Notes: a model not told the origin generated them from the letters alone. A stretch of DNA of 64,000 bases from Myxococcales bacterium (GCA_016706225.1 JADJKB010000022.1:192689-256688), one strand, 5' to 3'; shown: positions 42,003-57,447, counted from the first letter of the stretch. Numbers and translations: made by a program.

Positions 42003-43541
42003 CTACTTCTTCACTTCGCCGGTTGCGAGATCGATGTCGATGTCGCGGAGGACACGGGGCGCGAAGCAGATCACGGCTGGCTGCGAGCCCTTCACCTTCT
42101 CGCGCACCAGCTTCTCGATCTTCTTCCCCATCGCCAGCGTGGGGACGAACGCTCCGAAGTAGCGCTTGCCGTTGTCCTCGGTCTCGGCAAAACGCGTCCC
42201 GGCGAGCTCGGTGTGTCCCTTGATGGCCTTGCGGGTCAGCGGGAAGTCGTAGTCCTTCGGCGTGACCTTGGTGATGCCGTACATCAACACGTAGATGTCC
42301 TTGCAGCCCTCGGTCGCGAGCTTGGGAATGCGAACGTGGCCGGGAAACTGCCGACCCCACTCCCACTTCACTTCCTGGACCTGAGCGGCGGGAGGTGTCG
42401 TGCGGTACAAGCCGTTGCCCGCGGCGAGCCACACGCGGCCGTCGACTGCCGCGTGGACACTCGTGGGTGAGGTCACACCTTCGGGCAGGGCCACCCTCTC
42501 CCAGTCGTGTTTCGGCGCTCGCTTCCAGACTGTTCCCTGCACCTTGTCGTTGTCGAAGGGCTGCCCGGTCACGACCCACAACGTTCCATCGCTGCCAAGC
42601 GAGGCGGAGATTGTGGGCAAGACGAACGGGTTCTTCACTACCTCGAAGCGCTCGCCGTCGAAGTGGACCGTGATCGCGCTCTTCCATGCGTCGCCGATGA
42701 CCCAGACGTCTTTCGCCGTGCGCGCCAGCAGGTAGGTCTCGTTGTAAGGATTCGGTCCGTCGAACCGCTCGACCTGTCCGCGCGTCGCGCCCGCCTTCCA
42801 CCACTCGATCGCGAACTTGTCGTCGTCACAGGTGGCCCCCGCGCTGAAGACCTCTCCGGTTGGGAGCGCCGTGAAGCCGGAGGCTCGAACCAAGGTCCCG
42901 CAGCTCGTCTTGGTGGTGACGGGCAGCGGCGGGCGCTTGGCTGAACCCAGCCACTTGAAGCGTACAGTGTCATTGGTGTCGTACGGCATCACGTTGTAGA
43001 GCAGCGCCAAGAGGCCGCCGGACCAGGTCGCGAGGCCGGCGTAGATCCAGCGCTGTCCCAGGTCGTTGCCCGACGTGGCCCAGCTGCCTCCGTTCCACTT
43101 CCGGATACCACCCCAGCCAACGCGGCCGTTCGAGAGCGTGATGGCAGCCCAGGCGTCGTCGGGCCAGCTGCCGACGATCCCGCGGATCCCCATGAAACCT
43201 TCCAGGCCCTTGCCGTACTTTTCGTCTTCGATCAGGCGGTCGCCGTCGACCAACGCGAGCGGGATGCCGCCGTTGCTGCGCACGAACAGCCGCTCACCCA
43301 CCGGGTAGAGATCGAGCGGATGTTCGGCACGGACAAGCAGGTGGAACGGGCTCTTGGCGTGTTTCGGTGCGTCGGGTACCGGCGCGGAGGCAGTCGCGCT
43401 GGCTGCCGACGAGGGCGCCGACGCTGCGGTGGGCATTGCACTTGGCGGCGCGGGGCCATCGGCAGGAGGCGGAGCTGTTCCGCCGCAAGCGGCTGCGACC
43501 ACCACACCCAACGACAACGAGCAGGTCTTGACGGACATCAT
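42003..43541 (-). CDS. lipoprotein, unknown function
   Basis: Signal and lipobox LGVVVAAAC. The ATGA overlaps the upstream cytochrome gene stop. The mature part is about 480 aa and beta-rich. Confidence 0.6.
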   Translation of the reverse strand: MMSVKTCSLSLGVVVAAACGGTAPPPADGPAPPSAMPTAASAPSSAASATASAPVPDAPKHAKSPFHLLVRAEHPLDLYPVGERLFVRSNGGIPLALVDGDRLIEDEKYGKGLEGFMGIRGIVGSWPDDAWAAITLSNGRVGWGGIRKWNGGSWATSGNDLGQRWIYAGLATWSGGLLALLYNVMPYDTNDTVRFKWLGSAKRPPLPVTTKTSCGTLVRASGFTALPTGEVFSAGATCDDDKFAIEWWKAGATRGQVERFDGPNPYNETYLLARTAKDVWVIGDAWKSAITVHFDGERFEVVKNPFVLPTISASLGSDGTLWVVTGQPFDNDKVQGTVWKRAPKHDWERVALPEGVTSPTSVHAAVDGRVWLAAGNGLYRTTPPAAQVQEVKWEWGRQFPGHVRIPKLATEGCKDIYVLMYGITKVTPKDYDFPLTRKAIKGHTELAGTRFAETEDNGKRYFGAFVPTLAMGKKIEKLVREKVKGSQPAVICFAPRVLRDIDIDLATGEVKK

Positions 43542-44611
43542 GGTTTCTCCAGCTTCACGGGTAGCTCCCCTTGTGCGAGGGTCACTTCACTCTCGATGAC
43601 GGCGCTCTCGTCGCTCACGCCCGCGGGGTGTTCGACGCGCTGGTAGGCAACCCGCCAGGCGAGCGGAAGACCGTCCGCTGCGGGCGCCAGCGTGAGCTCC
43701 ACGAGCGCCCACCGGGTTCCGTCGGCGCCGAGGCGATCGTCGTGGATCACCCGACGCGGGACACCAACCTTGCCGAGCGGGCGATAGTGGCGCGCGAGAT
43801 ACCGCACACTACGCGTGACGCTGGCGTAGTCGTCGCCCACGGCTTCGACCGAGATCTCCAGGCGACGGAACAGGTCGCCTGTGGGAAATGCGTGCCCCAC
43901 ACCCACACTCTCGAGCTCGAGCTCGACGCGGCGCGACGAGATGCGTCGCGCCCGTACGACGATGGCGTCCTTCAGCGACGACTCGCGACGCTGGCGCGAA
44001 AACCCATGCTGGCGTCGCGTGCCGTCCTTCGGCATGTGACAGGTCGCACAGGCCAGCCCCGCAAACTTCCCCCGGGCGTGCTCACTGACCGTGGACTGCA
44101 TGAGCTCGGGTCGGGGCCGCGCAAGGGTGTCCGGAAAAGCGAACTCGTGACACGAAGCGCAGGCTCCGACCGATGCAAAGCGGGCGTCACGCTGCAGACG
44201 GTGCGGGGCGCGCTCCGGGCCGGCCTCCGCGCGCGGCGCCGCGAGCACGACCTCGCCGCTCAGATGACAGGTGACACAGCCCACTCCGAGCTGCGACAGC
44301 TCCGCCGGTGCGTCGGCAGAAGGGTCAGCCTCCGGCGCGTGACAGCTCCGGCACATGGCGAGTGGCTCCCGAGCGAGGGCGCGCTGGTAGGCCGGATCAC
44401 GATCCGAGCGCTGGTGTGGTGACCCCCGCCACTCCCGCGCGACGTCCGCGTGGCAGCGGACACACTCCCGGTTTGCTCGCGCCATCGCCAGACCGCGAGC
44501 GCGGGCCGGTCGTGGCAGCTCGACGGCTGCTGGGGCCGGCGGCTTCGCGGGCGGCGCGGCGGGACCGGCGCAGCACGCGAATGCAAGCGGGAGCGCGAGC
44601 AGACTTCGCAC
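43538..44611 (-). CDS. multihaem c-type cytochrome (five CxxCH)
   Basis: CVRCH, CRSCH, CVTCH, CASCH and CATCH. The GTG at 44611 gives the signal peptide VRSLLALPLAFACCAG. The upstream part of the listed ORF overlaps the PNPOx-like gene. Confidence 0.75.
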   Translation of the reverse strand: MRSLLALPLAFACCAGPAAPPAKPPAPAAVELPRPARARGLAMARANRECVRCHADVAREWRGSPHQRSDRDPAYQRALAREPLAMCRSCHAPEADPSADAPAELSQLGVGCVTCHLSGEVVLAAPRAEAGPERAPHRLQRDARFASVGACASCHEFAFPDTLARPRPELMQSTVSEHARGKFAGLACATCHMPKDGTRRQHGFSRQRRESSLKDAIVVRARRISSRRVELELESVGVGHAFPTGDLFRRLEISVEAVGDDYASVTRSVRYLARHYRPLGKVGVPRRVIHDDRLGADGTRWALVELTLAPAADGLPLAWRVAYQRVEHPAGVSDESAVIESEVTLAQGELPVKLEKP

Positions 44612-44624
44612 GCGCGGGACGTTA

Positions 44625-45281
44625 TCACTCGAAGCGCGCGCCGCCCACGTCGAGCGGCGCAATCGCTGCGCCGTCAACGAGGTCCGAAGCAGGTTCGGGC
44701 CGAAGCGCTCGGAGCTCGAGCGGCACGACACCCGCCCAGCACGGCCGCTCGAGATCGGACGCGAGGTCGAGGGGGGGACCACGCCGGATCTTGGCGGAGG
44801 CTTCGCCGACGGGAAATGCCACGACGCGGGTCGCCGAGAGCTCGGCGTCGTTCGGCTCGCGCACTTCGAGCGAGCGGCCGGGGGTGACGTGGTCCACCAA
44901 CGCGGCCAGCACCCGCCGCTTCTCCTGCGCGTCCTCGACTTCGCGCCCACGACCGAAGATGACGACCGAGCGGTAGTTCATCGAGTGGTGCATGGCGGAG
45001 CGGGCGAGCACGAGGCCGTCGAGAATGGTCACGCTGACACACGCGGACACGCCCTCGACCAGCGCGGCGAGCATGCGGTTCTTCTTGGCTCCGTGCAGGA
45101 AGAGCTCGTCCCCCACGCGCACGTGAGCTGTCGGGAGCACGTAGGGCTGTCCTTCGCGGACGAAGGCCACCTGACACAGGAGCGCCGCATCCAGGATGTC
45201 GTGCACGACCCTCGGGTCGTACGACCCGCGCTCGGGGTGGCGTTTCAGCTGGGTACGTTGGGTGGGGGAGCTCGCGACCAT
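44625..45281 (-). CDS. pyridoxamine 5'-phosphate oxidase-like (split-barrel flavin-binding) family protein
   Basis: LKRHPERGSYDPRVVHDILDAALLCQVAFVREGQPYVLPT is the typical Pyridox_ox_2-type N-terminus. The start is chosen at the ATG at 45281; an alternative is 45320. Confidence 0.6.
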   Translation of the reverse strand: MVASSPTQRTQLKRHPERGSYDPRVVHDILDAALLCQVAFVREGQPYVLPTAHVRVGDELFLHGAKKNRMLAALVEGVSACVSVTILDGLVLARSAMHHSMNYRSVVIFGRGREVEDAQEKRRVLAALVDHVTPGRSLEVREPNDAELSATRVVAFPVGEASAKIRRGPPLDLASDLERPCWAGVVPLELRALRPEPASDLVDGAAIAPLDVGGARFE

Positions 45282-45317
45282 TTTCACACCTGCCTTGTGG
45301 CAAGCGACACTGTGTCC

Positions 45318-45347
45318 CAAACTGGACTAGATGAAAGGTACAGTTTG
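45318..45347. promoter_or_regulatory. inverted repeat CAAACTG-N16-CAGTTTG in the PNPOx-like / MocR divergent region
   Basis: Exact 7-bp arms at 45318-45324 and 45341-45347 flank an AT-rich centre. This is the only AT-rich patch in a 63-nt intergenic region. Confidence 0.35.
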
Positions 45348-46829
45348 AAAAGACCGGATAGGCCAGTTCGACGCTCCGGGCTGCCGCTCGACCTGGCAGA
45401 ACACGCGGGCGAGGCACTGTTCGTCCAGATCGCGCGGGCGCTCTCGGACGACATCCGGCGCGGACGTCTGCGTCCCGGCGCCCGCTTGCCCGGCGCGCGG
45501 ACGCTGGCGAGCGAGCTGGCGGTACACCGAAACACCGTCGTTGCGGCCTACAGCGAGCTGGCGGCGGAAGGCTGGATCGTCGCACGAGAAGCGCGGGGGT
45601 CGTTCGTCTCGTCCGCGCTGCCGGAGACTTCGCCTCGGCGTTTCACTCGCAGCGTTGCACCCGCGGGGGTCGCCCGACGACCCGGCTTCGACCTCGGACG
45701 ATTTCCCGACCTCGACGAGAGCGCCCCGCCGCGCGGCGCGCTGGTCTTGTCCGGGGGAGTGCCGGACGTACGCCTTGCACCCAAGCTGGAGCTTGGGCGG
45801 GCGCTCCGGCGGGTGCTCGGGCGCGACAGCGTCCGGGTGTCGAGCTACGGCAACGAGCAGGGACACCCCGCACTCCGCAGCGCGGTCGCCGAACTGTTGA
45901 CCACGACGCGAGGTGTGCTCGCTGCGGCCGACGACGTGCTCGTAACCCGCGGCAGTCAGATGGCGCTGTACTTGATCGCGCGCGTGCTGCTCTCGCCCGG
46001 CGACGTCGTGGCGGTCGAAGCGCTGGGGTACCGACCGGCCTGGAACGTGTTCTCGAGCCTGGGCGCCGAGTGTCTACCGGTGCCAGTGGATGCCGCTGGC
46101 CTCGACGTGAGTGCGCTCGAACGCGCGCTCGAACGCCGGCCGATCCGTGCGCTCTACCTCACTCCGCACCATCAGTATCCGACGCTGGCCACGCTGAGCG
46201 CGCCGCGTCGCCTCGCGTTGCTCTGGCTGGCGGAGAGACACCGCTTTGCGATCATCGAAGACGACTACGATCACGAGTTCCACTACGAAGGACGACCCGT
46301 GCTCCCGTTGGCAAGCGCGGACCGCGCGGGGGTGGTGCTCTACGTCGGCACGCTGTCGAAGATCTTCACACCGGGCCTGCGCGTTGGGTGGGTGGTCGGG
46401 CCGCCTCCCGTCATAGAAGCGATGAGCCGCGTGCGCGCCCACATCGATCGCCAGGGCGACTTGCTGCTCGAGGCGGCGCTGGGCGAGTTGCTCGAAGACG
46501 GAGTCGTGCAGCGCCACGCGCGCAAGGCCCGGCGCATCTATCAGGCGCGCCGCGACCATCTGCTGGAGGCGCTCCGGCGCCACACCGGCGACTGCCTGAG
46601 CATCCGGGTCCCCACCGGCGGCATGGCGCTCTGGGCTCGGACCCAGGGCATCGACGCGGACGCCTGGGCCAAGCGCGCGCTCTCGCACGGGGTGGTCGTG
46701 CTGCCAGCGCGCCGTTTTGCGTTCGACGGCCGAGCCCGACCGTTCTTGCGCCTCGGGTTCGCCAGCCTGAACGAGCGCGAGCTGAGCGAAGCAGCGCGAC
46801 GCCTCGGTCGCGCCCGCAGCAGCAAGTGA
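45345..46829 (+). CDS. MocR/PdxR-type regulator (GntR HTH fused to a class I aminotransferase-fold domain)
   Basis: LPGARTLASELAVHRNTVVAAYSELAAEGWIVAREARGSFV is the helix-turn-helix. GTLSKIFTPGLRVGW contains the PLP-lysine context. The start is uncertain: TTG 45345 or GTG 45312. Confidence 0.85.
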   Translation: MKRPDRPVRRSGLPLDLAEHAGEALFVQIARALSDDIRRGRLRPGARLPGARTLASELAVHRNTVVAAYSELAAEGWIVAREARGSFVSSALPETSPRRFTRSVAPAGVARRPGFDLGRFPDLDESAPPRGALVLSGGVPDVRLAPKLELGRALRRVLGRDSVRVSSYGNEQGHPALRSAVAELLTTTRGVLAAADDVLVTRGSQMALYLIARVLLSPGDVVAVEALGYRPAWNVFSSLGAECLPVPVDAAGLDVSALERALERRPIRALYLTPHHQYPTLATLSAPRRLALLWLAERHRFAIIEDDYDHEFHYEGRPVLPLASADRAGVVLYVGTLSKIFTPGLRVGWVVGPPPVIEAMSRVRAHIDRQGDLLLEAALGELLEDGVVQRHARKARRIYQARRDHLLEALRRHTGDCLSIRVPTGGMALWARTQGIDADAWAKRALSHGVVVLPARRFAFDGRARPFLRLGFASLNERELSEAARRLGRARSSK

Positions 46830-47857: not shown

Positions 47858-48418
47858 ATGCCCCGACGACGCTTGCACGAGACCTCACCCGAGGCCACGA
47901 CCGAGACCGACGAAGATCTGGTCTCGCGCACGGACAAGAAGCGCGCGCGGCGTGTGCGCGAGGACGCACTCTTCGAGCTCACCCGGGAGCTGACCGCACT
48001 CAGTGAGAAGAACCTCGGGCGACTGGGCCTGCCGGAGCCGGTCCTGGACGCCATCCTCGACGCTCAGAAGATCAAGAGCCCGCGCGCTCGCGGTCGGCAA
48101 GAGCGGGTCGTGCGTGGCGCACTGCGGGACGCCGAGTGGCCGGCAGTTCGCGCGCGACTCGACACCCTGCTCTTGCACGGCACGGCTCCGACGGCGGCGC
48201 CTGCACCGGGCGAGGGCAAAGAGCGCGAGTGGGTGGTGCGCCTCTTGGGTGAAGGCAGCACCGGGCTCGACGCTTTTCTGGCGGACCACCCGAGTGTGGA
48301 TCGCGAGCACCTGTTCAAGCTCGTCCGCGCGGCGGGTCGCGGTGCGCCGGACGTGCGCAAGCGGGCCGAGGGCAAGCTCGCGCGGACGATTGCGCTCCTG
48401 TTGCGGCATCCGGGTTGA
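47858..48418 (+). CDS. YjgA/DarP-like ribosome-associated protein (DUF615)
   Basis: SRTDKKRARRVREDALFELTRELTALSEKNLGRLGLPEPVLDAILDAQKIKSPRARGRQ matches the YjgA pattern. ACGGAG RBS. Confidence 0.7.
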   Translation: MPRRRLHETSPEATTETDEDLVSRTDKKRARRVREDALFELTRELTALSEKNLGRLGLPEPVLDAILDAQKIKSPRARGRQERVVRGALRDAEWPAVRARLDTLLLHGTAPTAAPAPGEGKEREWVVRLLGEGSTGLDAFLADHPSVDREHLFKLVRAAGRGAPDVRKRAEGKLARTIALLLRHPG

Positions 48419-48430
48419 GCGCGCGCCGAC

Positions 48431-50173
48431 TCAGACGGGCTCACCCTCGACCACGATGCGGCGCCAGAGCTCGAACGTGAGCAGCATCCACAGGCGTAAC
48501 CCGTACCGGCCCGGTCCCTCCTCCGTGTCATACGAGAGGAGCTGCGCGACCCGCTTGGGATCGAAGATGCCAGCCCGCACGATCTCCTTCTTGCTCAAGA
48601 TCTTCCGAGCGAAACGCCGCATCTCGCCCTGAAACCAGAAGTGAACCGGCACACGCATGCCGCTCTTCGGGCGCCGAATCACCGCTTCCGGCAGCGCGTC
48701 CTTGTACGCGAGCTTGAGCACTACCTTCTCCACACCCTGCCGCAGCTTCAAGGTCGGCGGCATCCGGAAAGACAGCTTCAACAATCGCTCGTCGAACAGC
48801 GGCGACAACATGGTCAGGGCGAAGGCTCCGGTCATGCGGTCCACCTTGGGCAGGATCAGGTGCGCGCCCTTCTGTCGGATGTTGATCGCACACAGCTTGT
48901 TCAGGAACGCGGTGGGCAGCTCGGCGTCGAGCTCACCCGAGAACACCCCTTCGAGATCCTGCTGTGCATCCACCTTGGAACGCCAGCTGGGCACCATCAG
49001 ACGCGCCCACTCCTCGTAGCTGCGACGATAGGAAGCCAGGTACATGCGCGCGCGAAACCCCGAGTCTCGATCGATGCCGCCATACCAGTGGTGGAGCAGC
49101 ATCGGGATGTTCTTGGGGCCGCCAAAGACCGGATCTCCTCCCTCACCGTTGAACACACACGCCACATCGCGCGACACGCGCCCGGCGAGCTCGAAGTTGG
49201 GCACCGTGATCGGGTCGCCGATCGGATCGTCGAGGTGCCAGACGATGCGGCGCAGGCGCGGCAAGAAGTCCTTCGGGCGCAGCAACACCTCTTCGTGCTC
49301 GGTGCCACAACGCTCTGCTACAGAGCGGGCGTACGGCAGCTCGTTGTCGTAGTCGTCCCCGAAGTGGATGGCGTAGGTCTTGACCTTGGCGTCGTGTTGT
49401 CGGGCGACCTCCGCGGTGACGGCGCTCGAGTCGAGCCCGCCCGACAAGAAGACACCGACGGGCTCACCGCGGGGCAGCCGCACCGCAACGGCGTCCCGGT
49501 GCAGCTCGGCAAAACGCCGGATCCACTCGGCGTCCGGCGCTGATTCGAGCTCACGATCGTCCTCGAACTCGTACCAGCGCGTGATCGCCGGCTCGGCCGC
49601 AGCGCCCTCGAGCTCGAGCCGATGTCCGGGGCGAAGCTCGTGCACACCTTCGAGCATGGTGCCGCTGCCGGGTACGAAGCTCATGCTGAGGTACTGCGCG
49701 ACCGCGGCGGCGCGGATCCTGCGTGGGAACCCGGGCGCCGACAGGATGCCCTTTGGTTCCACCGCGAACAGCAGACGTCCCGCATGGCGAGCCCAGTACA
49801 GCGTGCGAACGCCGGCTCCGTCGCGTGCGAGACAGAGCCTCGCGCCGTCGAACGCGGCAAAGGTGAAGGCGCCGGTGAGCTCGCTCACGAGCTCTGGACC
49901 CAGCCTGCGGTAATCCGCCAGCAGCTGCGCGGGGGACACGAACCGGGAGCCGGTCAGGTATCCGCTCATTGCGATACACGCGTCGGCTTCCGAGGCGAGG
50001 CATGCGGAGCGCAAGCGCGGCGAAGCTTCGGGCCGGGCGGCACGCACGGCCACGCTGCCCTGTGCCGAGACGAAGCTGACGACCTTGCCGCGACCGCGGT
50101 GAGCGAGCACTTCGCTCATGCGTTCGAGCAGGCGCGGCTCGGGAGGCCCTGTGAAACCGAAGAGCGCGCCCAT
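48431..50173 (-). CDS. asparagine synthetase (AsnB) family protein lacking the N-terminal Cys nucleophile
   Basis: PP-loop VFLSGGLDSS. AsnB-like N-terminal domain, but the protein starts MGALFGF with no Cys at position 2. The start overlaps the upstream stop (TGATG). Confidence 0.85.
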   Translation of the reverse strand: MGALFGFTGPPEPRLLERMSEVLAHRGRGKVVSFVSAQGSVAVRAARPEASPRLRSACLASEADACIAMSGYLTGSRFVSPAQLLADYRRLGPELVSELTGAFTFAAFDGARLCLARDGAGVRTLYWARHAGRLLFAVEPKGILSAPGFPRRIRAAAVAQYLSMSFVPGSGTMLEGVHELRPGHRLELEGAAAEPAITRWYEFEDDRELESAPDAEWIRRFAELHRDAVAVRLPRGEPVGVFLSGGLDSSAVTAEVARQHDAKVKTYAIHFGDDYDNELPYARSVAERCGTEHEEVLLRPKDFLPRLRRIVWHLDDPIGDPITVPNFELAGRVSRDVACVFNGEGGDPVFGGPKNIPMLLHHWYGGIDRDSGFRARMYLASYRRSYEEWARLMVPSWRSKVDAQQDLEGVFSGELDAELPTAFLNKLCAINIRQKGAHLILPKVDRMTGAFALTMLSPLFDERLLKLSFRMPPTLKLRQGVEKVVLKLAYKDALPEAVIRRPKSGMRVPVHFWFQGEMRRFARKILSKKEIVRAGIFDPKRVAQLLSYDTEEGPGRYGLRLWMLLTFELWRRIVVEGEPV

Positions 50174-51333
50174 CAGCCGAAGTCGGCGTCGCCGCCGAAG
50201 TCCGCGCTGCCACCGAAGTCCGCGCTGCCGCCATGAGCTGCACCGTCATCGCCCGACGAATCGTGACTCGACTCGAAGCTCGAGTCCGAAGACGCCCCGC
50301 CTCCGTCGGAACCCGTCGAGCCGGGCTCTGCGGGTCGCTGCGGCGGCTGGGGATGCTCGACCGATTCCGGGACCGGCGGTGGCGCGAGGGCGAGCCCCGC
50401 CAAGCCGCCGGCGAGCGCACCGAAGGCGATCAGATCCACCGGGACCGCGAACGCGGTCGCCTCGGGGACGGTGGGCCCGAGGGCCTTGATCTTGGGGACG
50501 TCTTTGGGAAACAACCCGGCATCGATCAATTGACGACCGGACAGCGGCAAGAGCCCGGAGGCGATCAGGCGCTCGCGCATGCGAGTCCCGGTTGGTGTCG
50601 CGTCGTGCAGCAGCAGCACGGGCAGATCGGCTCGCTCCTGGAGCAGCCGCTTGGCATGAGAGAGCAGATAACTCGGGTAGCCATTTTCGCTGAGCACGAG
50701 CGCCCGCTGATCGGCGTGGAAGTTGTTCTTCACGAACAGATCGACCAGCAGGTCGTGCTGCACGACCAAGATCCGCTCGACACCGTAGTCGTAGATGTCG
50801 CTCTCGCGATACGGACCGGGCGCACGATCGAGCGACGGTTTCTCGAGCAGTCGCTCGATGGGGCGCTCGGCGGCCCTCCACTTGTTGACCCAGCCACGCA
50901 ATGCTTCACGCGAGGCCGCCGCGCGGCCCTCGGGGGAAATCTGGCGTTGAAAGCGACCGGCAATCCAGGCGACGACCCCCACCAGGATGACCAGCGCCGA
51001 CACGAGCACGAGCGCGGTCGAGTCCAACACACGCCCGACGACCACACCGACGACTCCGCCAAGCACCGCAAGGCGGCCGCTCCTGCCGCCCAGGGTGAGA
51101 AGAGTCTCGAACACAGCCAGGATGCGCTGCTCTCGCCCACGGCAGTAACGAGCGTAGAGCTGATTGAAGGTGAAGTAGTAGGTGTCCTTGGCGCTAGCGC
51201 CGGACAAGAGCGCCATGAACTTGGTGTCCGTGATGCCGTCGCTCTTCGGATCGAAAACGTACTGATACTTGCAGCTCTTGCACGCGGTGCCTTCGCGCCG
51301 GGTCTGGCTGGTGGCGCACTTCGGACACTTCAC
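50173..51333 (-). CDS. Zn-ribbon membrane protein with a degenerate Toprim-like segment and an acidic repeat tail
   Basis: The GTG start overlaps the upstream stop (GTGA). CPKC...CKSC ribbon, 2-3 TM helices, then ILVVQHDLLVDLF...LVLSENGYPSYLLSHAKRLL...LPVLLLHDATPTG, a further TM helix and the tail GGSADFGGSADFGGDADFG. Confidence 0.7.
   Translation of the reverse strand: MKCPKCATSQTRREGTACKSCKYQYVFDPKSDGITDTKFMALLSGASAKDTYYFTFNQLYARYCRGREQRILAVFETLLTLGGRSGRLAVLGGVVGVVVGRVLDSTALVLVSALVILVGVVAWIAGRFQRQISPEGRAAASREALRGWVNKWRAAERPIERLLEKPSLDRAPGPYRESDIYDYGVERILVVQHDLLVDLFVKNNFHADQRALVLSENGYPSYLLSHAKRLLQERADLPVLLLHDATPTGTRMRERLIASGLLPLSGRQLIDAGLFPKDVPKIKALGPTVPEATAFAVPVDLIAFGALAGGLAGLALAPPPVPESVEHPQPPQRPAEPGSTGSDGGGASSDSSFESSHDSSGDDGAAHGGSADFGGSADFGGDADFG
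50176..50235 (-). repeat. three tandem 18-nt coding repeats (GGSADF / GGSADF / GGDADF) forming the extreme C-terminus
   Basis: The reverse complement reads cat ggc ggc agc gcg gac ttc ggt ggc agc gcg gac ttc ggc ggc gac gcc gac ttc ggc, followed by TGA. Confidence 0.9.
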
Positions 51334-52022
51334 GCCGACACGCTCCGCGTGATGATGGTGCGGTTCAGCATCGGGTGATCTTCGTCGGTCGGTCCGGTGT
51401 CACTGTCCGGGTGATAGACGACGACGTCGAGTGCTTCGTCATCAGTGAAAAAACTGTGCGCGGCGTCGGCGGCAATGATGAAGACCACGCCGGGTGACAG
51501 GTCGTGTTCTCGCGTCGGTGTCACACATCGGCCCGAGCCACGTGTGACCATACCGACCCGCACGGACGGATGAGTGTGCCGGGTCTGGCGCGTGCGAGCC
51601 GGAATGTGCAGGTGGTTCAGGCACGGATCACCAAGGCGGCTCGGCGGCAACAGGAGCGAGTCCGTGCAGCCGTCGATGTAGCGCAGGCGACCGCGTGCCT
51701 CGATGGGTCCACCCAGGCAAAACACTCCCGAGTGTCCGAGGCGCGACATGACGACCCCCTTGCCGGCGCCCCCGATGCTGCCCCGGCCGACCACGGCGGC
51801 GTACATGCCTGCGCTCAACGTGAAGCGCCCGGCGTTGCACACGAGCCCGGCCTCGCCCTGATGAACGAAGACGTAGTGCGTCGCGCCATCGGTGAGCTCG
51901 AGCACGGCGCCACTCCAGCCGGCGAGCGCGCTGGGCAGCGCGCCTCCCGGCTCGAGGCCGAGGCCGTGCTCCAAACTTGCGAGCCGAATGCCGTCTGGCG
52001 TTCGCTCTTCGGGGGAGGACAT
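51330..52022 (-). CDS. cupin-fold protein (probably a two-barrel bicupin)
   Basis: RHTHPSVRVGMVTRGSG...PGVVFIIAADAAHSF is a cupin metal-site pattern. The N-terminal half (GATHYVFVHQGEAGLVCNAGRFTLSAG) resembles a second barrel. The start is chosen at the ATG at 52022. Confidence 0.55.
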   Translation of the reverse strand: MSSPEERTPDGIRLASLEHGLGLEPGGALPSALAGWSGAVLELTDGATHYVFVHQGEAGLVCNAGRFTLSAGMYAAVVGRGSIGGAGKGVVMSRLGHSGVFCLGGPIEARGRLRYIDGCTDSLLLPPSRLGDPCLNHLHIPARTRQTRHTHPSVRVGMVTRGSGRCVTPTREHDLSPGVVFIIAADAAHSFFTDDEALDVVVYHPDSDTGPTDEDHPMLNRTIITRSVSA

Positions 52023-52187
52023 CGCACGGGAGAGTAGCGCGGCGCGGCTGCGAAGTGACCTACTGAGTTCAGACCGCCCCGTGAGCGTCGCTCGGGACTT
52101 CGCCAGGGTTTTGCCCCGCATTCGACCTGTTGGTCAGCCGAGCAAATCTTGCGACACTGGGCTAACCGCCCCTCCTACGGCCAGCTC

Positions 52188-53135
52188 ATGACACACGCAA
52201 TGCATGGTGTTCCGTGGACCCCGGCGAAGATGCGCGCCGCGGTCCAGAAGGTGCAAATAGGCGGCTCAGTCAGCTTCTCCTTCGGAACGGATCCGCTGGA
52301 CTGTCTGCGTCAACTCGATGGGCAGGTCTTCGCGCTGCGCCCCGACCTGAACCTCCACATCTCGCCCAACCTGAAGGGCGCGAAGTTCACCGAGGCAGAG
52401 CTCGAGACCGTAGCCTCCCTCGAACACGTCCGCGGACTCGAGGTCTCCGCTTCCAAACAAGCCCGACTCTCAGCCCTTGGCGCCTTGCGACACCTCGAAC
52501 GCCTGACCCTCCGCGGAAGCCTGCCGGACGTCGAGTTCGTGGGCCAGCTGCCGGCGCTCACCCAGGTCTTCGTGTGCGGTGCCGCCAAAGGACTCGATTC
52601 ACTCGGGACCTGCTCCGCGCTGGAGCAGCTCCACATCCAGTCCGCGGCGGTACCATCCCTCGCCTTCATCGAGTCGCTGCCGCGGCTGCACCGAGTCACG
52701 CTCGACGGCGTGCAGCAGGTGGGTGGGCTCGAAGCTCTGACGCGCCTGCCAGCATTGGAAGTGCTTCAGCTGAGCGAGATCAAAGAGCTCGTCGACGTCG
52801 ACTTCATCGCTGCGCTCGCCAGAGTCGAGAGCCTCACAGTGAGGCAGTCGCGAGTAGTCAAGCTGCCCGATCTCTCCGGCCTCGAGCGCCTCACCGAACT
52901 GCAGCTTCATCTGATGAAGGCCTGGACCAACCCCGAGGTGATGGCGACGCTGCCATGCGTCGAGCGGATCAAACTCGAAGAGATCAACACCAAGCTGAAA
53001 GCCGAGCGCTTCTTCTTCCTGGCGGAGATGGGCTTGAGCCATCTGGACATCGAGTTCCTGGATTTCAACAAGGGACGCATCGAGGCGATCACCGCGCACT
53101 TCGCCAGGTTGGGCAAAAGCGCGCAGCTCGCCTGA
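52188..53135 (+). CDS. leucine-rich repeat protein
   Basis: Repeated LxxLxxLxL units (LRHLERLTLRG, LEQLHIQS, LHRVTLDG, LEVLQLSE, VESLTVRQ, LTELQLH). No signal peptide is visible. The start is uncertain: TTG 52149, ATG 52188 or ATG 52200. Confidence 0.6.
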   Translation: MTHAMHGVPWTPAKMRAAVQKVQIGGSVSFSFGTDPLDCLRQLDGQVFALRPDLNLHISPNLKGAKFTEAELETVASLEHVRGLEVSASKQARLSALGALRHLERLTLRGSLPDVEFVGQLPALTQVFVCGAAKGLDSLGTCSALEQLHIQSAAVPSLAFIESLPRLHRVTLDGVQQVGGLEALTRLPALEVLQLSEIKELVDVDFIAALARVESLTVRQSRVVKLPDLSGLERLTELQLHLMKAWTNPEVMATLPCVERIKLEEINTKLKAERFFFLAEMGLSHLDIEFLDFNKGRIEAITAHFARLGKSAQLA

Positions 53136-53164: not shown

Positions 53165-55033
53165 TCAAGGGATGATGTACTTCGCGTCATCCTCGAAGCG
53201 CACGTCGTCGATCACCACGTTGGCTCCGGGAGCGTCGCTCGTGTGGAAACCGAGCTCCAGGATCCCGGAGCCGAAGGCGCCGCTCGGCACGGCGACCTGC
53301 TCGACCCGAGACGCCCCGGGCTGAAGCTCGAAGCTGCCCACGGTGGACGAAGCCAACGTGTGGCCGAGGGTCAGCTCCACCCGCGTGCTTCGGTCGGCGT
53401 GCCCGCGCACGAGCACCCGGCTCGCAAACGGCCACTCTGCCGCGAAGATCACCCGGGCCTTCGTCGTGGTCATGCGGGCCGAGGAGCCAACCGCCTCGAA
53501 CCCGTCGCTGACCAGGCGTTTGTCCCCGAGCTGAAACCCCTGTGCGCTGAACTTCAAGGATCGAAAGTCGCGCATGTACCAGTCCGACTGGGTCGCGTCC
53601 CGCCAGCGGTTCGGGTGAACCCGATAGCGCGCGGCAAACGCCAGCGCTGCAGGGTAGACGGCAACGTCGCCGATCTTTTCGTCCACCAGCTGCCACAAGA
53701 GCTTCGAGCTCTCTCCGTACTGCACCGCCTGCGAAGCCCCGCGACAGCACGGGATCACGGCGCGTGTCTGGCCGAGCATGTTGCCCTGAACCAGGAGCGC
53801 AAAGGGCACGGTTGCTCCGACACCCACCAACCACAGCGAGCGCTCGGGTTTGGCCATCAACCACGCGGCGATGCGCTCGACTACCAGCGCGCCGAGCACG
53901 ACGAAGAGCGGCGTCAACGGGGTGAGGCGGCGCGCGCCGAACGTTCCCGACCCGTGCCAGTCGAGCACCGCGGAGTAGAGAAACCCTTCGATGGCGCCGG
54001 CTGCGACCAGCGGCAGGACTAGCGCCCACATCGCACGACGCTTCCAGGCGAACACCAGCCCCACGACCGCGAGCCAGGCAACGGGCGTCGAGTAGAACAG
54101 TCCCCCATGCGGCGCGAACAGCAGCAGGAACGGGTGCGCCTGGGACAAGTGAAGGTACGGGCCGCTCGCCGGGCTCGTGGTGTAGTGCCCGTACATGTAC
54201 TTGTAGAGCATCAAGAGCGGCACCACGCCGAGGGCCGCGCCGGCGGCGAGCACGCCAAGCACGCCCGCCAACTTGCGGATGTCTCTTCGGAAATGAATCA
54301 GCGCAACGGTCAGCGGGAGCAGGCCGTAGATGAGCTGAGGGGGTCGCTGCAAGAGTGCGATCGCGACCGCGAGCGCGGCCACCACCCAGCGCGCCCAGGA
54401 CTCCGGCTTCTCGTGGGCCCGCAGCGACGTGAGCGCGACCAGCGCGACACCAAACGTCGCGTACACGTGAGAGTAGCTGGGCCACAGGCCGGAATACGCG
54501 GCCAGGAGCCCCGCCCAACCGAACAGCGCCGCGCTCACCGCCGCGGCGCCGTCCCCCACGAACCGCCGCGCCAGTCGGTAACAAAGGTAGAGCGAGACCG
54601 CACCCACGACACAGCCGATGGCGAACGCATCACCTGCGAGCGGCCCGCGACACCCGGCGAGTACGTCCGGCCTTGCCCCCGGCGGCAGCTTCACGAACAA
54701 ACGCACCAGGAACAGCGCCGGTGCGAGGAACATCGTCGGACCCAGGTAGTACGGGTTCGCGACATGACCCGTTCCGTGATCTTTGCCGAGTGCGAACGGA
54801 TCACCGCACAGCGCGTAGTCGTTCTTGAAGTCGAAGTCGCCGTCGAACACCAGTGAGCGGGCGTAGAGCCAGATGTAGTGGGGATCGGAGTTGCCCGGAG
54901 CGTCCTTGGCTCGCTCCGCGAACCAGAACCACAGGTAGAGGCCGAGGGCGATCAGGCACACGGCGATCCCCGCCCGCTGATCGCGGGCTGCCTCTCGCAG
55001 GCGCTTCGCCCAATCCCTGGATCCCCCGGTCAT
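53165..55033 (-). CDS. GT-C-fold glycosyltransferase-like membrane protein
   Basis: DPHYIWLYARSLVFDGDFDF in the first loop and LCYRLARRFVGDGAAAVSAALF. About 12 helices plus a beta-rich C-terminal domain of about 200 aa. The ATG at 55033 lies 2 nt after the upstream stop. Confidence 0.6.
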   Translation of the reverse strand: MTGGSRDWAKRLREAARDQRAGIAVCLIALGLYLWFWFAERAKDAPGNSDPHYIWLYARSLVFDGDFDFKNDYALCGDPFALGKDHGTGHVANPYYLGPTMFLAPALFLVRLFVKLPPGARPDVLAGCRGPLAGDAFAIGCVVGAVSLYLCYRLARRFVGDGAAAVSAALFGWAGLLAAYSGLWPSYSHVYATFGVALVALTSLRAHEKPESWARWVVAALAVAIALLQRPPQLIYGLLPLTVALIHFRRDIRKLAGVLGVLAAGAALGVVPLLMLYKYMYGHYTTSPASGPYLHLSQAHPFLLLFAPHGGLFYSTPVAWLAVVGLVFAWKRRAMWALVLPLVAAGAIEGFLYSAVLDWHGSGTFGARRLTPLTPLFVVLGALVVERIAAWLMAKPERSLWLVGVGATVPFALLVQGNMLGQTRAVIPCCRGASQAVQYGESSKLLWQLVDEKIGDVAVYPAALAFAARYRVHPNRWRDATQSDWYMRDFRSLKFSAQGFQLGDKRLVSDGFEAVGSSARMTTTKARVIFAAEWPFASRVLVRGHADRSTRVELTLGHTLASSTVGSFELQPGASRVEQVAVPSGAFGSGILELGFHTSDAPGANVVIDDVRFEDDAKYIIP

Positions 55034-55035
55034 CT

Positions 55036-57342
55036 TCACCACACCGTCGTCAGCACCGTGTGCTCGCCCGGGCTGGGTTTCACCGGCAGAGAAGGGGTGC
55101 CGCGCCGCGCGCCCCACGACCCGTTGTGTTTCTCGGTGCCGGGTCGCGGGCGGATCTCGCTCTCGCTCCGGTAGATCATGCCGGCCTTCCACAGCGGCGT
55201 TGGCATCTCGAACGGCATGCCGGTAGCGCGCAGGCGTGTTGGCAGGTCGATCAACGTCCAGCGCCGGGTCTTGGTCACCTCGGCGCTCAGGTTGAACGTT
55301 GCATCCGGTTCGATGGGGCCGGGCGCCAGGAAATACACGCTGAATCGCCCGCCGATCCCCGGCTGCATCCGCGTGCCGAGCAGTCGAACCCCGCCGCTGA
55401 AGTCGGTCGCAGCGGACTTGTCCAGCTCGTCCACCAGCTCTTGCCGCAGTCGCTCCGCCAGCGCCAGGTCGCCGGACGCGACCGCGGCGTTGTGCGCAAT
55501 GCGACGCTGCTCGAAGGTCTTCGCGGTGCCCGTTGGCACAGCGTTCGGCTCCTGCTTCAGGTGATGCCGAAGCTCCCAGGTAACGAACGGATCGGGGACG
55601 ACCGTGTACATCGGATCGTTACCTTGCCGGAAGTACCACTCGAGCCGGGTCGGCTCGCGCTGCGAGAGTGAGAACCCATCGAGCAGCGCCTTGGGTTTGG
55701 AGCGGTCGGCGATCCAGAACGCCCCCACCGCGCGCACCGCGTAGCTGTCAGCAAGCTTGGTCAAGTCGGTCGCGTAGGCAAAACGCGTGTCGAGCACGAA
55801 GTATTGCGCCTCACCGACCTGAGGCCCCACCGGCACCGCGCCCACGAGGATCGGACGCCTGAGGGCCCAGTCCATGCTCCAACAGGCCTTCATCCCGTCG
55901 TGCAACATGACCGTCGTCCCGCTCTCGAGGTCTCGGCGCAACCACTTGAGCACGGTGATCTTGTCGACATCCTGGTGAATCAGATCACCCCGCTCGTCGA
56001 AGCGTCCGCCGGTGCGGCGCGATTGCACCAACCCGGCGACTCCATCGGGGAACATCGCGATTGGAACACACGCTGTGAACAGGAGCGCAATGGCCGGCGG
56101 CCACAGCATGCCCTGACGCCCGAACCGCCGCACGAGCGCGCGCCCAACGGCCTCGAACGTCCAGGCGAACAGGCCGAGGGAGAATGCGAAGTAGAGCGCG
56201 AAGGGCTGCGGCCAGAAGAAGTGGATGTCCGCGCCCTGCTTGAAGGTGACGTATTGCAGCGCCGCCATGGCGAGCATCGCCAGCGGGAAGATCTCGGCGT
56301 CTTTCCGCAGGAAGAGCAGGCGAAACACGAACAGGGGCAGCGCCGCCTTGCCGATGAAGATCGCCAGCGGCGTGAAGCTCGCGTCGATCCAGTCCGCGCG
56401 GGATTCGAGCACGGCGTCGAGCGCCATGTTGCCGCCGGCGGAGCGGTGCATGCCCTGGGTTAAAAGATTGCCGAGCTGACCAGCCTTCTGAAATGCCACC
56501 AGATAAAAGAGCAAGAGCCCGACTGCCAGTGATGCACCGAGCGCCCACCACTGAGCGAAGCGCCGACGGTCGACGGACGGGTACCAGAAACCGTTGAACA
56601 AGATCCCACGCGGCAGGCCGAACGCGAGCACGACAGCGCTGAAGAAGAAGCCCGGCCAGTCACTGTTCAGCGCGGTGAAAAACCCGAACGCGCTGACCAG
56701 GATCCAGCGCCGACGCCAGGTCTGGGTCATGCGCAGGTAACCCCAGGTCGCAAGCAGCACACCGAACATGACCGGCACTTCGAGGTTGTTGAAGTTGCCG
56801 AACGCCAGCGCAATCGGGGTAACGACGAACCCGAGACACGCGAGGGCACCGGCGACGGGGCCCCAGAGCTGTCGCCCGATGCCGTACACGAGCGGCGCCG
56901 ACAGCGCGCTCATGACGACGGCGGGCAGCCGGCACACGAAGTCCTGGTGCCCGAACAGTTTGACCACGATCGCTGTCGTCCAGAAGATCCCCCACGGGTG
57001 GTTGCAGTAGTAGACGGCAGGCGTCGGCGGGTCCGTCAGGTACATCGCGACGGGCGCGATGATCTTCCACTTCCACATGTTCTCGGCGGCGATGCCGATG
57101 GCGGCGTTGCTCGCCCAGTGGCCGACCGCGATGGGGCCGAACATCTCCCAGGCGACCGCGGCGGTGAACCACAACGAAGCCAAGACGGCGATGACGCGGC
57201 ACACGAGCTCGACTCGCGGATGAGCGACCGCCGGAGCCTCGCTCCGAAGGGCCGACCGCACGCGCGAGAGCACACGCCGCACACGTCCGACCTGAGGCGC
57301 CTCCGGGGGGGCCAATCCCGCCACTATGCCTTCTTTTTGCAT
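55036..57342 (-). CDS. GT-C-fold glycosyltransferase-like membrane protein
   Basis: NHPWGIFWTTAIVVKLFGHQDFVCRLPAVVMSALSAPLVYGIGRQLWG matches the ArnT-family pattern (H-P-x ... F-G ... R-L-P ... Y). A soluble domain of about 300 aa forms the C-terminus. Confidence 0.6.
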   Translation of the reverse strand: MQKEGIVAGLAPPEAPQVGRVRRVLSRVRSALRSEAPAVAHPRVELVCRVIAVLASLWFTAAVAWEMFGPIAVGHWASNAAIGIAAENMWKWKIIAPVAMYLTDPPTPAVYYCNHPWGIFWTTAIVVKLFGHQDFVCRLPAVVMSALSAPLVYGIGRQLWGPVAGALACLGFVVTPIALAFGNFNNLEVPVMFGVLLATWGYLRMTQTWRRRWILVSAFGFFTALNSDWPGFFFSAVVLAFGLPRGILFNGFWYPSVDRRRFAQWWALGASLAVGLLLFYLVAFQKAGQLGNLLTQGMHRSAGGNMALDAVLESRADWIDASFTPLAIFIGKAALPLFVFRLLFLRKDAEIFPLAMLAMAALQYVTFKQGADIHFFWPQPFALYFAFSLGLFAWTFEAVGRALVRRFGRQGMLWPPAIALLFTACVPIAMFPDGVAGLVQSRRTGGRFDERGDLIHQDVDKITVLKWLRRDLESGTTVMLHDGMKACWSMDWALRRPILVGAVPVGPQVGEAQYFVLDTRFAYATDLTKLADSYAVRAVGAFWIADRSKPKALLDGFSLSQREPTRLEWYFRQGNDPMYTVVPDPFVTWELRHHLKQEPNAVPTGTAKTFEQRRIAHNAAVASGDLALAERLRQELVDELDKSAATDFSGGVRLLGTRMQPGIGGRFSVYFLAPGPIEPDATFNLSAEVTKTRRWTLIDLPTRLRATGMPFEMPTPLWKAGMIYRSESEIRPRPGTEKHNGSWGARRGTPSLPVKPSPGEHTVLTTVW

Positions 57343-57431
57343 GAACGACCGCGCAGCCGAGCGGCAGGGTACTACAGAGGAAGCTGGGCTTGTCGCGCCC
57401 GCGCACATTGCTGGATCGCCCGCCGACGCGG

Positions 57432-57440
57432 GGCTAATGA
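57432..57440 (+). promoter_or_regulatory. GGCTAATGA, candidate -10 element 7 nt upstream of the ATG at 57448
   Basis: It shares the GGCTAAT core with the motifs at 15446 and 25191 and has leaderless-type spacing. Confidence 0.2.
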
Positions 57441-57447
57441 AGCCCGG

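Follow-up and report, generated by a model that had tools for sequence, protein, structure and literature searches.

Which carboxylate does an asparagine-synthetase homologue activate once its glutaminase site and its aspartate-binding residue are gone, and why is its gene chained to those of a cupin and a membrane protein? This question is raised by three consecutive minus-strand genes in a stretch of 64,000 nucleotides from a Myxococcales bacterium (GCA_016706225.1, JADJKB010000022.1:192689-256688), which was analysed at its full length and is referred to here as the window. The genes encode a two-barrel cupin (bicupin), a membrane protein which we call the middle protein, and a homologue of the asparagine synthetase AsnB, termed the AsnB-like enzyme or, for its likeness to asparagine synthetase, the AS-like enzyme. 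By analogy to characterised members of the AsnB family, and with a probability of roughly 0.4, we propose that the AS-like enzyme adenylates the carboxylate at the C-terminal end of the middle protein's flexible tail and forms an amide without glutamine, with the bicupin as an accessory metalloenzyme.

Glutaminase and adenylation sites of the AsnB-like enzyme

The AsnB-like protein matches the Pfam domain Asn_synthase (PF00733) with an E-value of 1.6e-74, while its GATase domain is recognised as a fragment only (residues 84-144). In the alignment to E. coli AsnB, the glutaminase residues C1, N74 and E76 are exchanged for Gly, Ser and Tyr, and R49 and D98 are lost. All five are missing from the window protein and from every orthologue. 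Cys2 is absent from about 60 syntenic orthologues and from 119 of the 120 database relatives; the only homologue beginning with MC (P0438) was rejected as an exception, its gene call being N-terminally truncated. In the window, a stop closes the reading frame 24 codons upstream, and no ATG, GTG or TTG lies ahead of the only upstream Cys codon. The initial annotation had described an enzyme without Cys2, without an upstream start that could supply it and without the N-terminal nucleophile (Ntn) of the glutaminase, which nevertheless carries an intact PP-loop (VFLSGGLDSS). These statements hold for the window protein, and the loss of the glutaminase residues together with the retention of the adenylation residues extends to its orthologues. 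Judged by these residues, the enzyme is unable to use glutamine.

Apart from one clade with dead catalytic residues and two metagenome loci (L127 and L130) described below, the orthologues retain the PP-loop as SGG[LIV]DS as well as E348, D351, Y357, K429 and K449 (AsnB numbering). The family signature NGEGGDP is found in 120 out of 120 database relatives. At two positions the whole family departs from AsnB in an invariant manner: D384, the residue that in AsnB binds the amino group of aspartate, is replaced by Ile, and R387 by Lys. The register of this part of the alignment was verified at the RVPFLD anchor. From these exchanges we conclude that the substrate is not free aspartate.

This bears on the most conventional assignments, namely an ordinary ammonia-dependent asparagine synthetase, or a cyclase of the lasso-peptide or beta-lactam type, that happens to lie beside unrelated genes. 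The Asn_synthase match is in agreement with the former, as are the score of 235.1 bits with the NCBIfam AsnB model TIGR01536, near its cut-off of 267.1, and the public annotation of relatives as 'asparagine synthase (glutamine-hydrolysing)' or 'asparagine synthase-related'. The exchange of D384 for Ile contradicts it, and the conserved synteny with the middle gene across phyla contradicts both. Furthermore, the known AsnB subfamilies were rejected as candidates, since all curated NCBIfam cut-offs were missed: PRK09431 (121 versus 499), the AsnO of N-acetylglutaminylglutamine amide (NAGGN) synthesis TIGR03104 (229.9 versus 570), the XrtA/PEP-CTERM amidotransferase TIGR03108 (228.6 versus 817), the lasso cyclase NF033535 (137.5 versus 525) and the albusnodin/ikarugamycin macrolactam cyclase family NF033561 (74 versus 300). 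Neither the window flanks nor the conserved neighbours contain a RiPP recognition element (RRE; RiPP, ribosomally synthesised and post-translationally modified peptide), a B-protease, a precursor, or clavam or carbapenem genes. We consider such assignments hardly credible. Among solved structures, the closest relative by sequence is the hydroxyamidotransferase TsnB9 (7ylz, E = 2.3e-21), followed by human ASNS, beta-lactam synthetase (BLS), E. coli AsnB and CarA.

Conserved gene neighbourhood and accessory proteins

A scan of one genome per species yielded 76 loci, and neighbours were counted in 74 non-redundant loci. The module occurs in at least eight phyla, with Myxococcota, Planctomycetota, Ca. 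Electrothrix (cable bacteria), Verrucomicrobiota, Bacteroidota, Acidobacteriota, Armatimonadia, Spirochaetota and Parabeggiatoa among the carriers. The AS-like gene flanks the middle gene in 60 of the 74 loci, mostly directly downstream. The bicupin gene lies directly upstream in 41 of them, and a 4-nt overlap between the cupin and middle genes was found in 28 out of 36 cases. Another 47 loci from metagenomes show the same pattern. This arrangement is far beyond chance. One locus, L088, was dropped as unreliable (2x-coverage contig, fragmented middle gene).

In Acidobacteriota (L081-L084, Pyrinomonadaceae and related), the parts are rearranged yet clustered: a 222-aa transmembrane (TM) protein is followed by a second Cys-less AS-like paralogue and a homologue of the middle protein, while the orthologous AS-like gene is convergent to these and is followed by the cupin gene. 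The two Cys-less AsnB-like paralogues of this variant measure 616 aa and 576 aa. L083 differs by an insertion that separates the AsnB-like gene from the cupin gene and encodes a restriction-modification pair, N6_N4_Mtase and a SfiI/BglI-like endonuclease. The synteny persists across phyla and through this rearrangement, in good agreement with the initial annotation, which had taken the three genes for one functional unit. On account of the neighbour counts and of the rearranged and metagenomic loci, we regard the middle protein and the AS-like enzyme as the core of the module, and the cupin and a tetratricopeptide-repeat (TPR) lipoprotein as accessory.

The latter represents a fourth family, a YbgF/BamD-like TPR lipoprotein of about 164 aa encoded between the middle and AS-like genes in 27 loci and absent from the window. 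Examples are L001:6991-7485 as well as L009, L013 and L038, with the conserved pattern SRAxxFLGKAxL...EAHKxxYKLA...PDGPLAPEA. In one database protein, P0307 (467 aa), the middle protein is fused to an extra TM helix and to this TPR domain. A sodium:solute symporter of the SSS family (about 475 aa; TIGR00813, 4e-38, under the panF and putP cut-offs) is encoded downstream of or beside the AS-like gene in nine loci (L018, L027, L034, L038 and five others), which hints at an imported small-molecule partner. In three loci without the AS-like gene (L020, L053, L057), no substitute enzyme was found; in L020 an insertion sequence element (HTH_32 and DDE_3) follows the TPR gene, and unrelated genes follow in L053 and L057.

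The bicupin belongs to Pfam Cupin_2, and its AlphaFold2 (AF2) model (predicted local distance difference test, pLDDT, 92) comprises 18 strands in two barrels. The top Foldseek matches are the bicupins 1sef, 1sfn, 4e2q and 1y3t (TM-score 0.55-0.71, E from 3e-11), and the fold relatives include EF2996, YlbA/ureidoglycine aminohydrolase, quercetinase and BacB. The 230-aa two-barrel cupin of the initial annotation is thereby borne out. An invariant three-His site (H149, H151, H189) is located in the C-terminal barrel. The alignment of the bicupins shows H204, H216, C119, C134, C166, E108, D117, D121, R112 and R155 to be invariant as well, together with the motif block RLRYIDGCTDSLL...GDPCLN.L.IP...Q..H.HPS.R.G. 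The bicupin shares the two-barrel fold and a His-rich metal site in one barrel with EF2996, YlbA/ureidoglycine aminohydrolase and quercetinase, but sequence identity to them is 12-18% only and the invariant motif is distinctive. The matches to ureidoglycine aminohydrolase and quercetinase are confined to the fold level. A function could not be assigned by sequence, the profile search against the PDB returning generic cupins only (4e2g, RhaR, BacB).

The membrane protein and its C-terminal tail

The middle protein is labelled 'hypothetical' in the databases, and its family comprises 1332 clusters at 50% identity (E <= 0.001). According to the AF2 model (pLDDT 85), a Zn ribbon is followed by a helical N-domain, a TM hairpin, a Toprim-like domain and a disordered tail. 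The ribbon gives weak profile matches to the RPB12 and L37Ae ribbons. The hairpin helices span residues 56-103 and 106-131 in the model and would place the N-terminal and C-terminal domains both in the cytoplasm. The alpha/beta domain, which spans residues 187-316 in the model, carries the motifs ExDIYDYGVE, VD..N..H, GYPxY and LLHDA(T/D)xxG. PF21180, the Toprim domain of Topo VI-A/Spo11 that is also present in JetD/MksG, matches 22 out of 25 members of the family (best E 4e-8); the window protein, with a score of 23.5, remains just under the gathering threshold of 24.1. The family profile finds Topo VI-A in the PDB (2zbk_A, E 1.6e-4), Foldseek matches the domain to 9o0g_A with a probability of 1.0, and its top matches are Topo VI-A and the Toprim of RNase M5. 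The initial annotation had reported a Zn-ribbon membrane protein of no recognised family. The Zn ribbon and the membrane part stand, whereas the lack of a family does not, given the Toprim-like domain of Topo VI-A type.

This domain shares the acidic position of strand beta1, the GxP and (D)xDxxG motifs and the fold with Topo VI-A/Spo11, but differs in several respects. The second Asp of the DxD motif is mostly Thr (D-A-T), an invariant His precedes the Asp, and a Zn ribbon and a TM hairpin are joined to the domain. At the Toprim Glu position, the window protein carries Gln, and the other members E, D or Q. Neither a 5Y-CAP/winged-helix domain with the catalytic Tyr nor a JetD N-terminal arm is part of the architecture.

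Zn ribbons and Toprim domains recur together in DnaG, RecR and type IA topoisomerases. One may therefore think of a nucleic-acid-directed or conflict system, in which DNA or RNA is bound or cut at the membrane by the Zn ribbon and the Toprim-like domain, with regulation or base modification as the task of the AS-like enzyme and the cupin. The recurrent domain pairing and the Topo VI-A-type motifs would suit such a system, as would a phyletic spread that favours large-genome, multicellular-like bacteria. It is at odds with the degenerate DxD motif, the variable Glu position (Gln in the window protein) and the missing 5Y-CAP domain. Moreover, the flanking genes are housekeeping genes that differ in each genome, and a search of PADLOC-DB 2.0 returned chance-level PP-loop matches only (E > 0.01); the flanks are not defence islands, and a defence system was rejected. 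We consider a system of this kind quite improbable.

Outside the folded domains, a single element of the middle protein is nearly invariant, namely [F/Y]G-COOH at the extreme C-terminus. Of 77 genome loci, 66 show it, as do 197 of the 212 diverse family representatives, with a single W-G case. The residue at position -3 is D, S or G. The linker ahead of the terminus is hypervariable; it is rich in Gly, Ser, Ala and Asp, and Lys makes up about 1% of it. Even the distant homologue of the Acidobacteria variant keeps the terminus and ends in DSFG. Tyr-Gly tails mostly occur without an adjacent cupin gene (7 of 8 genome loci) and Phe-Gly tails mostly with one (36 of 54). The cupin could act on the aromatic residue, or the association could be a phylogenetic coincidence, as about three lineages only are involved.

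The tail of the window protein carries tandem ADFGG units and ends in DADFG; the stretch at 50176-50240 (minus strand) contains near-identical units in tandem, GGSADFGGSADFGGDADFG. Two to four such units occur in related Polyangiaceae proteins (L005, L089, L090, P0007). Judged by the sequence, this looks like replication slippage that duplicated the terminal motif. The repeats also resemble multi-core precursors, and the tail might thus be a RiPP-like core or assembly scaffold, following borosin or pearlin logic, which the cupin and the AS-like enzyme modify before cleavage releases a short modified peptide or an amino-acid-derived metabolite. AS-like and oxidative enzymes are found together in RiPP clusters (PMC13060819), and FzmA makes a small molecule on a peptide C-terminus (PMC13622209). 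However, the module lacks a conserved protease, RRE, precursor gene or exporter, and in most members of the family the terminal motif occurs only once. As a membrane protein, the carrier is large and highly conserved, and it keeps its fold even after tail loss. We therefore hold a released product to be quite unlikely.

In an Electrothrix-type paralogue clade (L036, L039, L044, L047, L049, L115, L120), the middle protein has lost its tail and retains all invariant residues of the Zn ribbon and the Toprim-like domain. The adjacent AS-like protein of this clade carries D238G/A, which affects the PP-loop Asp, as well as E348A/V and D351S. The motif equivalent to Lys449 is also lost in L039, L115 and L120, while the Lys is kept in L036, L044, L047 and L049. 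The second tail-less variant, L086 (JGI metagenome contig Ga0683571_0051242), has no AS-like gene; a Gly-rich lipoprotein gene follows. Tail and catalysis have thus been lost jointly. In L086, an FMO-type flavin monooxygenase gene (1153-2541) overlaps the middle gene by 4 nt and occupies the translationally coupled position of the cupin gene, which suggests a redox role for this slot.

Enzymes of the AsnB family activate a carboxylate by adenylation before nitrogen is transferred onto it. In the mechanism we propose, the genes would encode a membrane module at the cytoplasmic face, with the Zn-ribbon/TM-hairpin/Toprim-like protein and its dedicated glutaminase-dead AsnB-family enzyme as the core. 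The enzyme would bind the flexible acidic tail and use ATP to adenylate the alpha-carboxylate of the terminal Gly in ...(D/S/G)-(F/Y)-G-COOH. A nitrogen nucleophile not derived from glutamine hydrolysis would then resolve the acyl-adenylate; free ammonia would give a C-terminal amide, and another amine a conjugate or a ring. The terminal Gly would allow the chain end to reach the buried PP-loop site, and a Gly-Gly terminus serves likewise for E1-type enzymes. The translationally coupled bicupin would most likely be an oxygenase or hydrolase that acts on the same tail or prepares the nucleophile, and the FMO of L086 would provide an accessory oxidative or hydrolytic step in its place. A role for the Toprim-like domain we can only infer.

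There are precedents for this chemistry among AS-like enzymes whose target is the alpha-carboxylate at the C-terminus of a ribosomal peptide: the product is an amide with TsrC and ScdTA and a hydrazide with FzmA, while PesC yields first an amide and then a nitrile (PMC13060819, PMC13622209). PesC uses Gln as nitrogen donor, FzmA uses glutamylhydrazine, and PesC requires that a metalloenzyme has first hydroxylated the neighbouring Asp (PMC13060819, PMC13622209). The initial annotation had pointed to the closure of intramolecular amide bonds by Cys-less AsnB homologues. This persists as one of several possible chemistries, and closer precedents exist for a C-terminal carboxylate that is amidated or ligated (PMC13060819, PMC13622209).

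A further variant would be a hitherto unrecognised system for the activation of protein C-termini, in which the glutaminase-less AsnB-type enzyme takes an E1-like role and ligates the aromatic-Gly end to a nucleophile other than ammonia, with the bicupin or FMO contributing an oxidative step. The nucleophile may be an amine of a protein, lipid or metabolite, or an intramolecular site. With E1-like activation (ThiS, MoaD, SAMP and Pup logic) the module shares a C-terminal Gly on a flexible tail and a dedicated ATP-dependent adenylating enzyme encoded alongside. Unlike these systems, it employs an AsnB-type PP-loop enzyme instead of a Rossmann enzyme of the E1/MoeB/ThiF type, its Gly-bearing protein is a membrane Toprim-like protein and not a beta-grasp protein, and no E2, E3 or isopeptidase is present. 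We regard this variant as unlikely.

Several observations weigh against the tail as a substrate. The joint loss of tail and catalysis comprises two independent evolutionary events only. Intact FG tails occur without an AS-like gene within the downstream flank of about 4-7 kb (L022, L024, L046, L053, L057, L060, L124, L125). Conversely, the metagenome loci L127 and L130 keep a YG tail (...EIDYG) though their enzyme reads NGAGGDP (E348A); PP-loop and Lys are retained in both. A small clade ending in DGDGE and L077, which ends in DFR, have an intact enzyme. No alignment columns of the AS-like enzyme track Phe-type versus Tyr-type tails, and the internal DFG-like repeats of several tails suit a docking motif equally well. 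Finally, the proposal leaves unexplained why a membrane-anchored Zn-ribbon/Toprim-like protein should be the substrate, and gives no account of the periplasmic TPR lipoprotein or the SSS transporter.

These points lead to another explanation. The C-terminal tip of the single-stranded-DNA-binding protein SSB, DDDIPF-COOH, is a docking motif. Likewise, the acidic ...DFG-COOH tip may bring the AS-like enzyme, perhaps together with the cupin, to a platform at the membrane, while the true substrate would be the carboxylate of a small molecule, a lipid or an envelope precursor, which the SSS transporter might supply and which might be connected with the TPR lipoprotein. The tail has the appropriate properties, being disordered, acidic, Lys-poor and terminated by an aromatic residue, and in several lineages it contains internal DFG-like repeats. 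The transporter (9 loci), the YbgF/BamD-like lipoprotein (27 loci) and the fusion P0307 are in line with such a platform, as is the persistence of FG tails without an AS-like gene nearby. On the other hand, docking alone does not predict that tail loss coincides with the loss of catalytic residues while both genes stay, and the neighbourhood contains no conserved candidate genes of a small-molecule pathway. We hold recruitment of this kind to be possible, if somewhat doubtful, and keep modification of the tail as our working proposal.

Operon layout, related systems and significance

The features of the operon are listed in Table 1. The chaining of the three genes by the overlaps GTGA at 51333-51330 (cupin/middle) and TGATG at 50175-50171 (middle/AsnB-like) had been described in the initial annotation, and its coordinates are correct. 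In the ORF list, the cupin frame begins further upstream; a start at 52022 yields 230 aa, in agreement with homologue lengths of 215-240 aa, and is likely the true one.

Table 1. Coordinates of the operon and its features, counted from the first nucleotide of the window.
Feature	Position	Strand	Remarks
Cupin ORF	51330..52121	-	ORF list and sequence
Bicupin gene	51330..52022	-	230 aa
Middle gene	50173..51333	-	GTG start, MKCPKC, 386 aa
CxxC...CxxC zinc ribbon	51271..51327	-	residues 3-21; C3, C6, C18, C21 conserved
Hydrophobic helical hairpin, two TM helices	50941..51108	-	residues about 76-131
Toprim-like alpha/beta domain, Topo VI-A/Spo11 type	50386..50805	-	residues 177-316
Disordered Gly/Ser/Asp-rich tail	50176..50364	-	residues 324-386, pLDDT < 50, ADFGG repeats
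Last two residues of the D-F-G-COOH end	50176..50181	-	F385-G386
AsnB-like (AS-like) gene	48431..50173	-	ATG start, MGALFGF, 580 aa
Degenerate Ntn-glutaminase-like N-terminal domain	49604..50173	-	alignment to E. coli AsnB
Synthetase (PP-loop ATP pyrophosphatase) domain	48461..49513	-	alignment to E. coli AsnB
PP-loop SGGLDS (within VFLSGGLDSS)	49427..49444	-	residues 244-249
Family signature NGEGGDP	49130..49150	-	holds E348 and D351 equivalents
RPKSGM	48656..48673	-	K449 equivalent

The operon is bordered by a divergent leucine-rich-repeat (LRR) gene at 52149..53135 (plus strand) and a convergent DarP gene at 47858..48418 (plus strand). A promoter and terminator scan of the operon gave no signal beyond shuffle expectation. 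Other neighbours in the window encode a discoidin-domain protein, a MocR/GntR regulator, a pyridoxamine-oxidase-like protein and three PMT_2 glycosyltransferase-like membrane proteins; none of them was found conserved with the unit at other loci. The three membrane proteins are large and polytopic and adjoin the operon (53165-59124). Two (675 aa and 790 aa) carry PMT_2/GT-C glycosyltransferase domains, and the third (725 aa) has no Pfam match; the ORFs 53165..55192 and 55036..57408 share about 150 nt as called. Two divergent genes lie at 44625-46829, one for Pyridox_ox_2 (pyridoxamine-phosphate-oxidase-like) on the minus strand and one for a GntR-aminotransferase (MocR-type) regulator on the plus strand; this is a common regulatory combination related to pyridoxal phosphate. 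The ORF at 43538-44950 (minus strand) contains at least five CxxCH haem-binding motifs (CVRCH, CRSCH, CVTCH, CASCH, CATCH) and is a probable multihaem cytochrome c.

The initial annotation could not place the trio in any described pathway. This remains so in view of the missed cut-offs, the lack of an RRE, protease or precursor, the negative PADLOC search and the literature. In the searchable literature, neither the trio nor the middle-protein family was found described, and nothing was found that joins AsnB with cupin and Toprim, or AsnB with Toprim and Zn ribbon; a search for 'asparagine synthase' with 'C-terminal glycine' returned eukaryotic ubiquitin papers only.

The nearest known systems are TsrC, ScdTA, PesC, FzmA and the AsnO of NAGGN synthesis, which belong to the AsnB family, possess the PP-loop adenylation domain and have a C-terminal carboxylate, not aspartate, as their known or proposed target; PesC also has an oxidative partner in its cluster, the MNIO PesHI (PMC13060819, PMC13622209). 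In contrast to the module, the enzymes of the TsrC/PesC/FzmA group hydrolyse glutamine, or glutamylhydrazine in the case of FzmA, whereas the glutaminase site is destroyed here throughout the family. Their substrates are short leader-containing or RRE-bound precursors, whereas the candidate here is the tail of a membrane protein of 320-390 aa, without leader or RRE and outside any recognisable biosynthetic gene cluster. The partner genes of the NAGGN AsnO (Ngg and the M42 peptidase) and of the XrtA/PEP-CTERM amidotransferase (exosortase locus) are absent from the window flanks and the conserved neighbours.

Lasso cyclases of the McjC family and macrolactam cyclases are likewise AsnB homologues that lack the Cys; they activate the carboxylate of a peptide by adenylation and form an amide independently of glutamine. 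They differ in that the module has no B protease, PqqD-like RRE, precursor peptide or ABC exporter, and in that the candidate carboxylate is that of a C-terminal Gly and not an Asp or Glu side chain. BLS (1jgt), carbapenam synthetase CarA (1q15) and TsnB9 share the AsnB fold, with a non-functional glutaminase domain in BLS and CarA, but are only remote relatives by sequence (1e-11 to 2e-21 against PDB chains). Their partner sets are different, and clavam, carbapenem or trichostatin pathway genes are not part of the module.

What is new is a putative AS-like carboxylate-modifying enzyme without a glutaminase, whose candidate substrate has no precedent. The question is directly testable, as cultured carriers exist: Aeoliella straminimaris, Stieleria magnilauensis, Lignipirellula cremea, Rhodopirellula sp. 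SM50 and Roseibacillus ishigakijimensis. An answer would correct the systematic misannotation of these enzymes as glutamine-hydrolysing asparagine synthases. Should the tail turn out to be the substrate, the AsnB family would have its first member shown to act on the C-terminus of a full-length membrane protein that is not a RiPP, and this member would also be the first such C-terminal modifier that works without a glutaminase. AS-like chemistry would then extend from natural-product clusters to a widespread cellular post-translational modification, and a large orphan family of Topo VI-A-type Toprim-like membrane proteins, together with a highly conserved orphan bicupin, would gain its first functional context.

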